Assembly: GCA_965372715.1 (NCBI GenBank)
Contig: CBDVDH010000005.1
Span: 1 to 64,000, forward strand
Source: an uncultured bacterium
Lineage (GTDB): Bacteria > B130-G9
DNA length: 64,000 nucleotides
Direction: 5' to 3'
Part shown: piece after piece, positions 11,948 to 49,965 of the stretch
How the letters are laid out: each line of letters opens with the position of its first letter
How positions within the stretch are numbered: the stretch's first letter is position 1
The notes under the pieces: model-generated
What the model was told of the DNA's origin: nothing
What the model saw: the letters and a program-made list of their open reading frames with translations, nothing else
Databases searched by the model: none
Position numbers and translations under genes: made by a program

Positions 11948-12021
11948 GTAGGGGCGGCTCACGAGCCGCCCTCGTTTGATTTGACCCAACGCTTCAAGGG
12001 CGGCTCGTGAGCCGCCCCTAC
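11948..12021. repeat. Inverted REP doublet downstream of dnaE
   Basis: GTAGGGGCGGCTCACGAGCCGCCC ... GGGCGGCTCGTGAGCCGCCCCTAC. Confidence 0.85.
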
Positions 12022-14438: not shown

Positions 14439-14514
14439 GTAGGGGTTCGCCGCGCGGCGAATGCCTGCCCTGTCCTATCGATCGTAAAGGGCAACCGCGG
14501 GGGGATTGCCCCTA
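14439..14514. repeat. REP doublet whose first hairpin is interrupted by TTCGCCGCGCGGCGAA
   Basis: GTAGGGG[TTCGCCGCGCGGCGAA]TGCCTGCCC ... GGGCAACCGCGGGGGATTGCCCCTAC. Confidence 0.8.
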
Positions 14515-31250: not shown

Positions 31251-31826
31251 TCAAGCGCCGATTTTCTTTAGCAGCCAGGCCATGTTCTGACCGAGGGTCT
31301 TCATCGTCTTCACTCCTTCCTCGTCTTGATGAACGTCGCCGATGTTACGGCCGATGCCGAAATTCCAGTAGATCGAGCCCGGCACGATCATCTGACCGAC
31401 CAAGAAAAAGTGGTTAAGCGTGTCAAATGTGTGAATCTGGCCGCCTCTCCGGACCGCCACGACGGCCGCGCCCACTTTGCGCTTCAGCAGGCTGCCGTTC
31501 GCTCTCGTGACGAACCCTGCCCTGTCGATGAGCGCCTTCATCTCAGCCGTTACGTCAGTGAAGTAGGTGGGCGAACCCAGGATTATGCCGTCAGCCTCAA
31601 TCATCTTCTCGATGCATTGGTTGACAACGTCATCCTCAACGGCGCAGCGCCTGTTCTTCTTCCTGTAGCACTCGTAGCACGCGGTGCAGCCGCGCAGCCT
31701 CTTGCCCGCTAGCTGCACCATCTCCGTCTCGATGCCTTCCTTCTTCAGCTCCTCAAAGACGTAGTTGATCAAGAGCGCCGTATTTCCGTCCTTTCTCGGA
31801 CTTCCGTTGAATGCGACAACCTTCAT
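31251..31826 (-). CDS. Iron-sulfur flavoprotein / NADPH-dependent FMN reductase family
   Basis: NGSPRKDGNT, CTACYEC-x7-C, GSPTYF, KALIDR. Confidence 0.9.
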   Translation of the reverse strand: MKVVAFNGSPRKDGNTALLINYVFEELKKEGIETEMVQLAGKRLRGCTACYECYRKKNRRCAVEDDVVNQCIEKMIEADGIILGSPTYFTDVTAEMKALIDRAGFVTRANGSLLKRKVGAAVVAVRRGGQIHTFDTLNHFFLVGQMIVPGSIYWNFGIGRNIGDVHQDEEGVKTMKTLGQNMAWLLKKIGA

Positions 31827-31953
31827 GCTATTCCTCCCTGTTAAGTTCAAGTGCAGAACCAGTATCCAAGTCCGGAAGCGATCCTAACTCCTGAGCTTGG
31901 TGAACGCAACTGCGTCTAGTCCGTATTACTCATAAACTCGCGATGCCATGAGG

Positions 31954-32080
31954 TGTGGGGCGGGCTTTCCAGCCTGCCTTTTGTAGCGATTGCCGCATTC
32001 CTGGGACGCGACACTCTGTCACGCGAGACCCTGTCACGCGAGACCCTGTCACGCGAGACCCTGTCTTTGGCAGGCTGGAA
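31954..32080. repeat. REP-like element with internal 15-bp tandem repeats (CTGTCACGCGAGACC), interrupted by IS1182
   Basis: Reverse-complement homolog of the intact element at 59399-59506; remainder AGCCTCCCCCAC lies after the IS. Confidence 0.85.
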
Positions 32081-33904
32081 GAGGCTGTCCCATAAGTCTC
32101 GGGGTTGCTTGCGATATTCTTAGTGGGTTGGTATTAGTTTAGTGGGTTGTTGCTTAATATGCCAATGTTCTGCATTAGTGAATTATATTGAACATAGTAT
32201 CGCTTAGTATAGGAGATGCTATCGTGCCAAAAAGAGATTATCGCTCTTCGCAAAGCCAGATGTTTGGCTATCAGGCCAAAGACCGCCTGCCTGAAGGTCA
32301 TATCTGCTTTTTGATCGACGAGGTTGTCGAGGACCTGGAGTTGGGTCCCGCCGCCAGAGGTAACACTGTGCTAGGAGCGCCGGTTTACGACCCTCGGATG
32401 ATGCTGAAAGTGCTATTCTACGGCTATGTTCGAGGCATCCGTAGCAGTCGGAAGCTTGCTGCGGAATGTCGCGAGAACATCGGGTTTATGCATTTGTGCC
32501 GAGGCCAGGCGTCGGATTTCAGGACCATCGCGCGTTTTCGGTCAGAGAACGATGAGCTGTTGGCATCAGCATTCTCGGAGTTGATTCGCCGGTTGGTTGA
32601 TGCAGGAGTTGTAAGCGGCTCTCATGTGATAGTTGACGGGATTCGCCGTACGGCGAAAGCGAACGCTAGTAACAGCAAGACAATTCATCCGAAGTTCTTT
32701 GATGAGGTTAGGAAGGCGGTTGACGAGTGGATGAGCGCTTCGGTTTCGTTGGACAAAGAGGAGGAAGTTCGTGAGAAGTTGTCTTCGGTGGGGATTGGGA
32801 CGAGTGGGAAGTCGCGTGGGATTGATAGCCTTCAGCGTTTGGTAGATAAGTGCCGTAAAGCGGTGGAAGAGGCTGAAACTGTCGATGCTAAGAAGGTCTC
32901 TTTGACCGACCCTGACAGTCGCTTCATGAGGGATGGCGCAACGGGTAAGATTGGGCTTTCTTATAACGTTCAGGCGGCTGTGGATGCGGAAAGTGGGATA
33001 ATGGTGGCGTGCGATGTGACTAAAGATGCAGTCGATAACAACAGCCTTTGTCGCTTGGTTCACAAGACAGAGGAGACCACTTGCCAGGTGGTCGAGGCGG
33101 TTGACGGGGATTGCGGTTATTTTAATGCGGCGCAGATTGGGCGGCTTGAGGGTTTGGGCAAGGATGTTTGCGTTGCGGATAGCGAGACGGTCTCGGCGAT
33201 GCGTAAGGGTCGGCTGTCGGAGTTCATACACGGTGAGAGATTTGATTACGATGCTGGGCGGGACGTTTTCGCGTGTCGTTTTGGGAACGAGCACGTTTTC
33301 AAGCGTGTTGGTGCACGAAAAGATGGCCGAGTTTTTCGGGTCTATGAGGCGGTGAGGCCGTGTGACGGCTGCCCGGGTCGACAGGAGTGCCTCGGTCAGT
33401 CACGGCACAGGTTCCACAAATTGGAGCGGACGCTTGAGCATCCTTGGCTTCACAAGTATCGGGAGCGTTTCCTTCAGTCGAGGTATCAGGACCGTCTTCG
33501 GGGTCGGAAGTTAATCGAGCATAATTTTGGACATTTGAAGCATAATCTTGGTTTGAGAAGATTCAACCTTAGAGGTCTTTCGGGAGCGAGGATCGAGGCG
33601 TTCCTTGCGGCGTTCGCCTCGGTGCTGAGGCGGGTTTGCAACATCTTATCCCGGACGGGGCGAAATTGGGGCGGTTTGATGCGAATGCAGGGGGCAGCAG
33701 GGCCAACGGCCGCGTAATGATGCAAACTGGGGAGAATAGGGTAGGTCTGCGCCCGTGCTGGAGACCCAAAACCGTCAATCTATCGAATACGGGAGGCACA
33801 ATTACGCTCGTAGCGAGATAGCGACAGCAAAAGGAACGATCATTTCAAAAAAGTGAATCCCAAATCCATACACCAGAACATCCAACGACTTATGACCCTG
33901 CCTC
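32081..33904 (+). mobile_element. IS1182-family insertion sequence with 18-bp imperfect IRs and 4-bp target duplication GGAA
   Basis: Left GAGGCTGTCCCATAAGTC; right GACTTATGACCCTGCCTC; GGAA at 32077-32080 and 33905-33908. Confidence 0.9.
32224..33717 (+). CDS. IS1182-family transposase
   Basis: YDPRMMLKVLFYGY, SSRKL, DFRTIARFR, SLTDPDSRFM, YNVQ, D-x-GY, IEHNFGHLK. Confidence 0.93.
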   Translation: MPKRDYRSSQSQMFGYQAKDRLPEGHICFLIDEVVEDLELGPAARGNTVLGAPVYDPRMMLKVLFYGYVRGIRSSRKLAAECRENIGFMHLCRGQASDFRTIARFRSENDELLASAFSELIRRLVDAGVVSGSHVIVDGIRRTAKANASNSKTIHPKFFDEVRKAVDEWMSASVSLDKEEEVREKLSSVGIGTSGKSRGIDSLQRLVDKCRKAVEEAETVDAKKVSLTDPDSRFMRDGATGKIGLSYNVQAAVDAESGIMVACDVTKDAVDNNSLCRLVHKTEETTCQVVEAVDGDCGYFNAAQIGRLEGLGKDVCVADSETVSAMRKGRLSEFIHGERFDYDAGRDVFACRFGNEHVFKRVGARKDGRVFRVYEAVRPCDGCPGRQECLGQSRHRFHKLERTLEHPWLHKYRERFLQSRYQDRLRGRKLIEHNFGHLKHNLGLRRFNLRGLSGARIEAFLAAFASVLRRVCNILSRTGRNWGGLMRMQGAAGPTAA

Positions 33905-34137
33905 GGAAAGCCTCCCCCACACCGACGAGAGTCATGCCCTTGAATTATTCGGATTAGGTCTCAGGCCCGCTCTGTTCTGCTGTCTGCGCACGAATCGAGG
34001 GCAGGTGCGGCGGCCTGCCTCTACAAGATCGCTATGGCCCGTTCGGATGAGTGCGTTGCGAAGACTTCTGTGACCTGGCAAAAAGCCGTGATTCAAACCA
34101 CTGGTTGCGGTATTGTTACGCTCTCTTACTTGGAGCT

Positions 34138-49189: not shown

Positions 49190-49208
49190 GAAGCCCTCTG
49201 AATGGATT

Positions 49209-49320
49209 TTCGCCGCGCGACGGACTCTACCAGCTGACCCATAAACAAAGCTCCCCGAGACGGACTCGAACCGCCGACCCGGTGGTTAATTCGCCGCGCG
49301 GCGAACTCTACCAGCTGACC
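49209..49320 (-). repeat. Tandem partial tRNA-Asn copies carrying the TTCGCC-N4-GGCGAA palindrome
   Basis: 49251-49318 duplicates the tRNA from D-arm to 3' end with the palindrome in place of CAGGTGGCTG; 49209-49238 is a degenerate shorter copy. Confidence 0.9.
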
Positions 49321-49331
49321 TACAGACAAAG

Positions 49332-49404
<73 letters not shown>

Positions 49405-49418
49405 GTGCACCGATTACA

Positions 49419-49739
49419 TCATGAATATAGCCCTCGGACCCTGTCCCTGTCAAGTTTGGGGCTGACTTGCCATACATTCCCCAGGCTTACGTCTGAGAGC
49501 AAAGAAGAGATGAACCGACGCCCAATACCGCTCTTGAGCTGCCGCTCTCGTTTCATGGCTGCCGAACGGCTTCCTACTTTTTCGCTGTAGAGCACGTACC
49601 ACGGTCGCCCTCCCCTTGTAGAACGCACCAGACCCTCATTGTGAGCCTCTAAACGCCTATCGATGTCGCCGGTTTGCCCTATGTAGGTCCGACCTGTGCT
49701 GGGAGAATACAGAACATAAGCGAGGTATCTACAAGCCAT
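49419..49739 (-). CDS. Small stand-alone GIY-YIG nuclease
   Basis: AYVL-x7-TYIGQT, RRL-x-x-HN-x-G, RPW, AMKRERQLKSG-x-GR. Confidence 0.92.
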   Translation of the reverse strand: MACRYLAYVLYSPSTGRTYIGQTGDIDRRLEAHNEGLVRSTRGGRPWYVLYSEKVGSRSAAMKRERQLKSGIGRRFISSLLSDVSLGNVWQVSPKLDRDRVRGLYS

Positions 49740-49777
49740 GATCTCAGATTCGTGGTCCTCTCGAACGATCTGACGAA

Positions 49778-49839
49778 AACCGCCGAACCCGGTGGTTAAT
49801 TCGCCGCGCGGCGAACTCTACCAGCTGAGCTGTCGGGGA
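49778..49839 (-). pseudogene. tRNA-Asn-derived 5' copy with palindrome-replaced anticodon arm, upstream of the GIY-YIG gene
   Basis: TCCCCGACAGCTCAGCTGGTAGAG[TTCGCCGCGCGGCGAA]TTAACCACCGGGTTCGGCGGTT. Confidence 0.88.
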
Positions 49840-49965
49840 ATGCTCTGTTCAAAAGAGAGATAGGTTCTACTTGTCATGACTGTCAAGTTCTTGGGCTGCG
49901 CCACACGGCACGCCTCCCTAAGGCAGATGTTTACCCGGGCGCGTTCCAGTGATAATGTCGAAATC

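Follow-up and report, generated by a model that had tools for sequence, protein, structure and literature searches.

An in-frame 16-nt palindrome in an IS1182-family transposase gene as a probable recent hit by an ultra-short repeat family that overwrites its targets

Very short dispersed palindromes, among them HIP1, dRS3/NTS, SDR and REP, have been known for decades, and to our knowledge the route by which they reach new sites is still largely open. The SDRs of Nostocaceae, which Elhai and colleagues reportedly described in 2008 as 'very small mobile repeated elements', are said to be 21-27 nt long and partly hairpin-forming, and to have been judged mobile because copies of otherwise matching sequences may have or lack them. 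SDR5 has been reported with the HIP1 palindrome as its insertion site (cited in PMC5861425 and PMC3116915). REPs measure 20-40 nt, have a constant tag and are mobile singly, as units, or in doublets (PMC3116915, PMC3733652); at 21-35 nt and more, they are the smallest repeats in the table of a 2011 review (PMC3184786). Rickettsia palindromic elements of ~105-146 nt lie in frame within protein genes (Ogata et al. 2000, cited in PMC3184786). Small GIY-YIG proteins named Ssn bind NTS/dRS3/SRM hairpin repeats and cleave DNA only when it is single-stranded; the repeats typically border the genes for these proteins, a likeness to an insertion sequence (IS) has been remarked, a restriction-like effect on transforming DNA is described, and NTS rarely lies within genes (2%) (Chenal et al. 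2025, PMC11893778). Here we examine a perfect 16-nt palindrome, TTCGCCGTACGGCGAA, inside an IS1182-family transposase gene of an uncultured bacterium (GTDB B130-G9; positions 1 to 64,000 of contig CBDVDH010000005.1, assembly GCA_965372715.1; this stretch of 64,000 nt is the window), together with the family to which it belongs, R-TTCGCCG-NN-CGGCGAA-Y, here called PAL. With a probability of roughly 0.8, the palindrome in the transposase gene is a recent secondary hit by an ultra-short repeat family that spreads by overwriting its targets and not by simple insertion.

Replacement of target bases, recurrence, a preference for inverted repeats, oriented flanks, restriction to one genus and polymorphism characterize PAL. 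PAL shares with the SDRs, known here through papers that cite them, its very short length, hairpin formation and presence or absence among near-identical sequences, but it is shorter (16 nt), is a perfect palindrome, belongs to a Coatesbacteria-like lineage and replaces 7-14 nt. As with the Rickettsia elements, a palindromic repeat lies in frame and the reading frame stays intact; those elements add a peptide segment, whereas PAL nets 2-3 residues and removes target bases. Being two 7-nt arms plus two central bases, without duplication, it falls outside the classical definitions of transposable elements and miniature inverted-repeat transposable elements (MITEs), and no repeat in the table of the 2011 review is as small (PMC3184786). 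In the open literature, we found no account of a 16-nt palindrome overwriting target bases, or residing in intron domain V or in tRNA copies.

The palindrome (32642-32657, TA centre; no strand is assigned to any PAL copy) occupies codons 152-157 (IRRTAK) of an intact 509-aa transposase reading frame (32188-33717, plus strand; frame and domain search), the sole copy in the assembly. The IS around it extends approximately over 32078-33904 on the plus strand (contig pieces 32081-33904, ends read from the sequence). The protein matches Pfam DUF772, DDE_Tnp_1 and DDE_Tnp_1_6 (E 2.5e-19, 3.6e-14 and 4.6e-13), and close relatives are named 'IS1182 family transposase' in their source records. The palindrome begins two codons past the GAC codon of Asp150 (32635-32637, plus strand) and in frame: window positions 32635-32664 read GAC GGG ATTCGCCGTACGGCGAAA GCG AAC, and the translation around the palindrome is ...HVIVDGIRRTAKANASNSK.... 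Asp150 is invariant in 34/34 aligned sequences and lies within a predicted strand (146-152), while D308 and E444 are conserved in at least 90% of the same alignment. By comparison with IS4/IS5/IS1182 DDE transposases in general, and given these two conserved residues, D150 putatively serves as the first catalytic Asp of the DDE triad. The first-pass annotation of the window had set the palindrome in frame beside this Asp of an IS1182 transposase, and sequence, domains and alignment agree. Allowing 1 mismatch, TTCGCCGTACGGCGAA has a single match within the window and none across 100 dinucleotide shuffles; allowing 3, it has six, compared with 0.41 on average after shuffling. The sites at 14446, 49290 and 49800 have identical arms and a CG centre.

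Comparison with other proteins and with natural alleles of the same IS indicates that the palindrome came later than its host element. In all 33 other homologues, which span 98% to 26% identity, the motif is DG[T/S]K--[V/I]xA, and the extra residues of the window's protein face a gap of two columns. A native IRRTA or a two-residue insertion in close homologues was sought and was absent from 33/33. The alignment consensus after the Asp, DGTK(V/I)(R/H)ANAS, comes close to the motif that the first-pass annotation had given, DG-TK(I/V)-(K/E)ANA, and a 98% identical protein (P0001) reads DGTKVRAN without the gain. The 112-contig assembly holds no second copy of the transposase gene, only recurring MITE-like end fragments, and in 41 genomes of relatives the IS copies are either fragmentary or at 56-71% identity, which is too far removed to give an ancestral state at base level. 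This state was taken from contigs of four public sequencing runs (four studies) aligned to 31800-34100. Three of the four (X1, X3 and X7, from three studies) contain a contig across the IS that is 97-98% alike and has six letters fewer within 32642-32657. Between the common GACGGGA and AGC, the X1 contig has 10 letters, CGAAGGTTCG, which encode DGTKVRAN; an ancestral segment of 8-10 nt encoding TK and a hydrophobic residue had been predicted, and the allele supplies 10 nt and TKV. These 10 letters also form a small inverted repeat of their own, CGAA-GG-TTCG. In run X2, a 604-nt contig differs at one position and has no gap, i.e. the palindrome is present; the contigs of this run leave 32878-33185 uncovered. 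Contigs of X1 and X3 also contain a joint from 32035 to 33905 with 11 other letters between. Because the palindrome-free alleles and 33/33 homologues lack the gain, the palindrome arrived later, by a 10-to-16 nt replacement, as the earlier proposal that it entered the IS after the IS arose would have it. It is thus a secondary hit, and palindrome-bearing and palindrome-free alleles both exist in nature. At position 32661, four bases past the palindrome, G in the window stands against C in each of the three palindrome-free alleles (Ala GCG vs GCC), either a plain single-nucleotide polymorphism or the edge of a converted tract.

At the protein level, DGTKVRAN became DGIRRTAKAN directly past the first Asp: T152 turned into I, K153 (conserved in at least 90%) into R, and two residues were gained at the end of the D150 beta-strand. 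An AlphaFold2 model built on the 34-sequence alignment (mean pLDDT 80.4) has residues 146-152 as one beta-strand, after which confidence falls from 95 to 70 over the following ten residues. It is plausible, judging from the sequence, that the palindrome cripples transposase activity while sparing the reading frame. The terminal inverted repeats of the IS are imperfect, ending ...CATAAGTC / GACTTATG.... Its ends and flanks (31913-32098 and 33883-33958) are repeated elsewhere in dozens of MITE-like units ~190 nt long, often at the ends of contigs, and a threefold 15-nt tandem (CCTGTCACGCGAGAC) lies left of the IS at 32020-32065.

The same 10-to-16 nt exchange is found in tRNA-Asn pieces of the window. 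An intact tRNA-Asn(GTT) gene (49331-49404, minus strand; tRNA search) gives the ancestral state; its plus strand reads GGTTAA-CAGCCACCTG-CTCTACC, and two partial copies read GGTTAA-PAL-CTCTACC. Compared with the intact gene, PAL stands in place of 10 nt (tRNA positions 25-34, numbered from the sequence) in a partial copy downstream of the true gene (49290-49305), and in place of the same 10 nt in a 5' stub upstream of a GIY-YIG nuclease gene (49800-49815). The X1 allele and these pieces together bear out the suggestion that the two-residue gain in the transposase matches the replacement in the tRNA copies and keeps the frame. A degenerate PAL with 2 mismatches (49209-49224), beside a third D-arm fragment, is kept in the sister genome. 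The stretch 49200-49840 as a whole combines the intact tRNA-Asn, the GIY-YIG gene, the 5' stub, which is cut in the T-loop, and downstream partial copies, with PAL-plugged pieces.

Beyond the window, we compared its genome (G000) with that of a sister species of the same genus (G001) and with other relatives. A PAL-bearing repeat of 230-250 nt represents the 3'-terminal portion of a group II intron, with domains V and VI. All 8 remnants in the genus (two in G000, C31:1-210 and C51:332-466; six in G001, loci L094, L097 and L099-L102) read GGAAGAG-PAL-GAAAGCCGCACGTCCGGTTC and score 17.7-25.6 bits against a 40-bit Rfam threshold, whereas 3/3 introns of the PAL-free genome G003 (L092, L095, L098) read GGAAGAG-CCGGATGCGG-GAAAGCC... 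and score 48-62 bits. Here too 10 nt gave way to 16, and the 5' strand of domain V was removed. Upstream of the eight PAL-bearing remnants, no intact reverse-transcriptase frame was found; either a PAL-bearing master intron kept spreading or each copy was hit at one spot.

A single-copy S41 peptidase gene (G000:C33:29576-31036, minus strand) was overwritten twice, with two in-frame gains relative to its 93%-identical G001 orthologue that are also missing from more distant orthologues. At the first site, CAATCGA-GCGGCTCCAA-CATG became CAATCGA-PAL-CATG (SGSN to IRRAAN, +6 nt); at the second, GAGCGAG-CGGCTCGC-ATAAG became GAGCGAG-PAL+G-ATAAG (AAR to VRRAAK, +9 nt). The old sequences were small inverted repeats, GAGC-G-GCTC and GCGAG-CGG-CTCGC. 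In G001, a fragment of a second, 69% identical IS1182 gene has a TA-centred PAL directly past the invariant F117-R118, turning DFR-TIA-LFR into DFR-IRRTAN-LFR; 34/34 aligned proteins are DFRT(I/L)x(L/R)FR-like and without the gain. At an orthologous intergenic REP apex, G000 has GGGG-CAGGGCTTG-TCTC and G001 has GGGG-PAL-TCTC (9 to 16). Paralogous empty sites were sought as well, with 3 matches in a strict flank-pair search and 66 in a gapped one; twins with PAL in place of the middle part include GTAGGGGTG-CCGCTTG-CTGCACCC, GTAGGGG-CAGGCCTTG-TGTCTGCCC, GTAGCCG-TAGGTTTCAACCTA-CGGATCG, CTGGGGA-CACGCTGCGG-CTGTCCCCA and CACGG-CTACCATTG-TGGTCC, all of putative polarity. Nineteen long frames span a PAL copy, and Pfam backs real genes for several; the verified in-frame gains in G000 genes are those of the IS transposase and the two S41 sites. 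The PAL copies in the linker of lysS (G000:C1:3772) and in a family-2 glycosyltransferase gene (G000:C20:47863) lie in regions that vary in distant relatives too and are common to G001; both regions also contain, in frame, short word repeats typical of the genome's intergenic DNA (e.g. AGTTGGC three times) along with PAL. Another copy, putatively coding and common to G001, is found close to where an IS1595 transposase gene starts.

What the dated targets have in common is a small inverted repeat and not mobility. Between 7 and 14 bases were lost per target (7, 8, 9, 10 or 14), mostly 9-10, and none of the dated cases has a target-site duplication. All five outgroup-dated targets (IS, tRNA, domain V and S41 twice) include one entire arm of an inverted repeat whose stem has 4 bp or more and whose loop does not exceed 7 nt, a property of 31.5% of 4000 random 10-nt genome segments (~0.003 for 5/5, with a criterion chosen after seeing the data); an earlier, stricter criterion had a baseline of 17.5% and would miss the tRNA case. 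Where the A..C flank gives an orientation, in four cases (the tRNA, the S41 site at SGSN, the orthologous REP and one paralogous REP), the overwritten part would tentatively be the 3' portion of the loop plus the 3' arm.

As a family, PAL is abundant, oriented and confined to the genus. The 3.56-Mb genome contains 67 copies of TTCGCCG-NN-CGGCGAA (centres 46 CG, 8 TA, 8 TT/AA and 5 other), the commonest 7-arm palindrome in a genome-wide palindrome census, and the same arms at spacers of 0, 1, 3, 4, 5 and 6 nt occur 3, 0, 0, 0, 0 and 1 times. G001 has 68 copies, and four other genomes of the taxonomic family have 0, 0, 0 and 2. Searching one genome per species for the CG-centred 16-mer returned at least 115 stretches; among the matches listed, nearly all were single and from unrelated taxa, in keeping with chance matches in GC-rich DNA, with no second high-copy lineage. 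Clustering the 65 scorable copies by their flanks gives 45 groups, of which 36 have a single member. A purine precedes the palindrome (position -1) in 62/65 and a pyrimidine follows it (+1) in 59/65, and these flanks are seldom complementary (15 Watson-Crick pairs; A..C plus G..T make up 41/65), counts that are not a clean statistic as copies within one flank family are not independent; beyond these two positions the flank columns contain no fixed tag. Because the flanking purine and pyrimidine are mostly unpaired, most copies represent one oriented 18-mer, which fits recognition of an oriented site rather than extension of the stem. The centre variants CG, TA and TT/AA appear to behave like sub-lineages; three IS-associated copies have a TA centre, and the tRNA, intron and S41 copies a CG centre. 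Most of the G001 copies examined (43 loci, 50 sites) are common to orthologous places in G000, so most of the family predates the split of the two species and a minority is polymorphic.

Several observations weigh against a recent hit by an overwriting repeat. The palindrome-bearing IS allele is known from this assembly and run X2 only, and X2 is possibly the assembly's source sample. With most copies shared with G001, PAL activity is low or old. The replaced length varies (7, 8, 9, 10 and 14), and two copies arose otherwise: in a FAD-binding oxidoreductase gene, PAL is an in-frame passenger in an 80-nt GTAG-headed REPIN-like doublet (G000:C71:3165-3245) where the sister species has 20 other bases (G001:C59:12571-12592), and in a purQ-like gene, a TG-centred PAL is a native near-match without length change.

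A driver for the overwriting is harder to name. The best candidate is the gene between PAL 49290 and PAL 49800, beside tRNA-Asn (49419-49739, minus strand), which encodes a 106-aa single-domain GIY-YIG nuclease (Pfam GIY-YIG at residues 6-70, E 2.1e-11, no other domain) and has PAL 61 nt upstream and 114 nt downstream. PAL is probably copied from existing PAL copies and would enter transiently single-stranded, folded DNA, aided by a single-strand nuclease specific for hairpins. Under the proposal of a GIY-YIG driver, the nuclease would open small hairpins, and in the repair one arm of the target would be overwritten by the hairpin that the nuclease recognizes. The likeness to Ssn lies in a single-domain GIY-YIG protein of ~100 aa (within the ~90-110 aa of that group), a gene flanked by the repeat on both sides, a dispersed repeat (67 copies), and a dRS3/NTS core, ATTCCCGCG...CGCGGGAAT, comparable to (A)TTCGCCG..CGGCGAA(Y/T), whose flanks give orientation. 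We hold it possible, and only tentatively, that PAL is a 16-nt mobile unit spread by a mechanism without prior description, an Ssn-like mini GIY-YIG nuclease combined with overwriting repair.

Much of what we found speaks against this candidate. No check of this analysis tied any enzyme to PAL. The solved chains nearest to the 106-aa protein belong to UPF0213 (1zg2, E 2e-4; 1ywl, E 4e-3), and NCBIfam returned no match for the nucleases. G001 has no orthologue of the gene (best match 34% identity), but it still has 68 PAL copies and gains of its own, and its tRNA-Asn locus (L231, C93:7900-8350) lacks a nuclease gene and has, as a 148-nt tandem, two stubs plugged by PAL. A second GIY-YIG gene (99 aa) lies ~30 nt past the 3' end of tmRNA in both species (L228, G000:C8:51634-52316; L226, G001:C142), with no PAL-like site (up to 3 mismatches) in the 1.3-3.2 kb around it; the idea of GIY-YIG as a multi-copy gene linked to PAL was dropped, there being only two copies, one without PAL nearby. 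The published SRM pattern with its upstream GTC tag, HGTCWYN(0-2)YYVSBRHN(0-5)WNVSBRGN(0-2)RNCYNB, encloses 0/67 PAL copies and is rarer in the genome than in a reversed-sequence control (18 vs 36 matches), and overwriting of genes or tRNA copies forms no part of the sections of PMC11893778 drawn on here. Among drivers, the GIY-YIG route seems the best of several doubtful ones, a RAYT-type HUH enzyme and enzyme-free template switching each look less probable than that, and what is left would fall to something else.

Spread might need no dedicated enzyme if template switching or microhomology repair at stalled small hairpins took an existing PAL as its template. That the targets are inverted repeats, that no dedicated enzyme could be linked to PAL, and that several ancestral segments share 3-5 nt with it (GCGGC, GCGG, CGGC, TTCG/CGAA) would all suit such a process, but by our estimate a 4-mer common to a GC-rich 10-mer and PAL is often expected by chance, and the conserved -1 purine and +1 pyrimidine with the strict 2-nt spacer suggest recognition. 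Moreover, the other hairpin families of the genome, GTAG-headed REP/REPIN doublets and MITE-like units, keep constant flanks, whereas PAL alone occurs in many unrelated contexts. We therefore regard enzyme-free spread as rather unlikely. Among those families, REPIN doublets of the form GTAGGG-GCGGCTC-NN-GAGCCGC-CC number 46 genome-wide (e.g. at window positions 11954/12000 and 18257), and MITE-like units with CCCGAAT..ATTCGGG and CCGCGTT..AACGCGG hairpins number 28 and 27.

About as improbable, in our judgement, is that PAL is a minimal REP moved by a REP-associated tyrosine (RAYT) Y1/HUH transposase that excises hairpins from single-stranded DNA by a cut on either side and exchanges the pieces. 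PAL is palindromic, GC-rich and high-copy like the REPs (PMC3116915; GTAG/CGTC tags in PMC3733652), the genome has four RAYT-like Y1_Tnp genes as well as classic GTAG-headed REPs and REPIN doublets, and PAL sits at the apex of several GTAG-headed hairpins; the CG-centred copy at 14446-14461 of the window, recognized by its similarity to TTCGCCGTACGGCGAA, lies within a GTAG-headed REP-like hairpin. The REPIN-like block in the FAD-binding gene, with PAL in place of 20 nt, points the same way. Yet PAL has 16 nt and is mostly untagged (only some sub-families, of 7 and 5 copies, are GTAG-headed), and where it meets other hairpins, among them REPs, it takes the place of their apex or of a single arm. 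Within 400 nt on either side, the four Y1_Tnp genes have other hairpin families and no PAL, and Y1/RAYT genes occur in 4/5 genomes searched, PAL-free relatives among them; both facts also count against assigning PAL to an enzyme of the genome.

The first-pass annotation had further suggested that the system edits mobile or repeated DNA, which is only partly borne out. A defence or 'editing' system that disables mobile DNA by writing a palindrome into catalytic motifs could explain why conserved motifs of two different IS1182 genes were hit (past D150 and past F117-R118), why an IS1595 gene has a copy close to its start, and why PAL is in catalytic domain V of 8/8 group II intron remnants; spare tRNA pieces and REPs were hit as well. 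But the single-copy S41 peptidase gene was overwritten twice in the same manner, PAL is also in the linkers of lysS and the glycosyltransferase gene and in many intergenic hairpins, the reading frames remain open, and no targeting component is known, all of which makes such a system very unlikely. Because housekeeping genes were hit too, PAL is not aimed at mobile DNA alone; we infer that the hit in the IS reflects hairpin-prone sequence and not a system directed against mobile elements.

That the palindrome is native to the transposase lineage, a product of point mutations or a selected protein-binding site, or an assembly artefact can hardly be sustained: the purQ-like copy is a native near-match of unchanged length, but the palindrome is in 0/33 homologues, 10 letters were replaced with a length change of +6, the identical 16-mer occurs at 8 genome sites and the arm pair at 67, run X2 bears it on an independent contig, and a second assembled species has the family. 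Two other ideas were abandoned. An origin at the RNA level, prompted by a tRNA junction between positions 34 and 35, had no support, and methylation-driven substitution, as proposed for HIP1 (PMC5861425), was rejected because PAL events alter length.

The IS provides an unusually clean before-and-after pair, the same element existing in nature with and without the palindrome and the exact 10 lost bases being known, and about a dozen further dated cases obey the same rule. If the rule holds, tiny palindromes would remodel proteins in steps of 2-3 residues and cripple mobile elements. Gene and RNA-family finders would be misled, as in domain V, where scores drop from 48-62 to 17.7-25.6 bits, and annotation should treat in-frame 16-mers as repeat hits and not as lineage-specific protein features. 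Single-strand nucleases of the Ssn type would gain a possible role in the propagation of repeats. Should the overwriting mechanism be true, PAL would be rewriting transposase motifs, intron domain V, tRNA copies and housekeeping genes of these bacteria while the reading frames are kept open.

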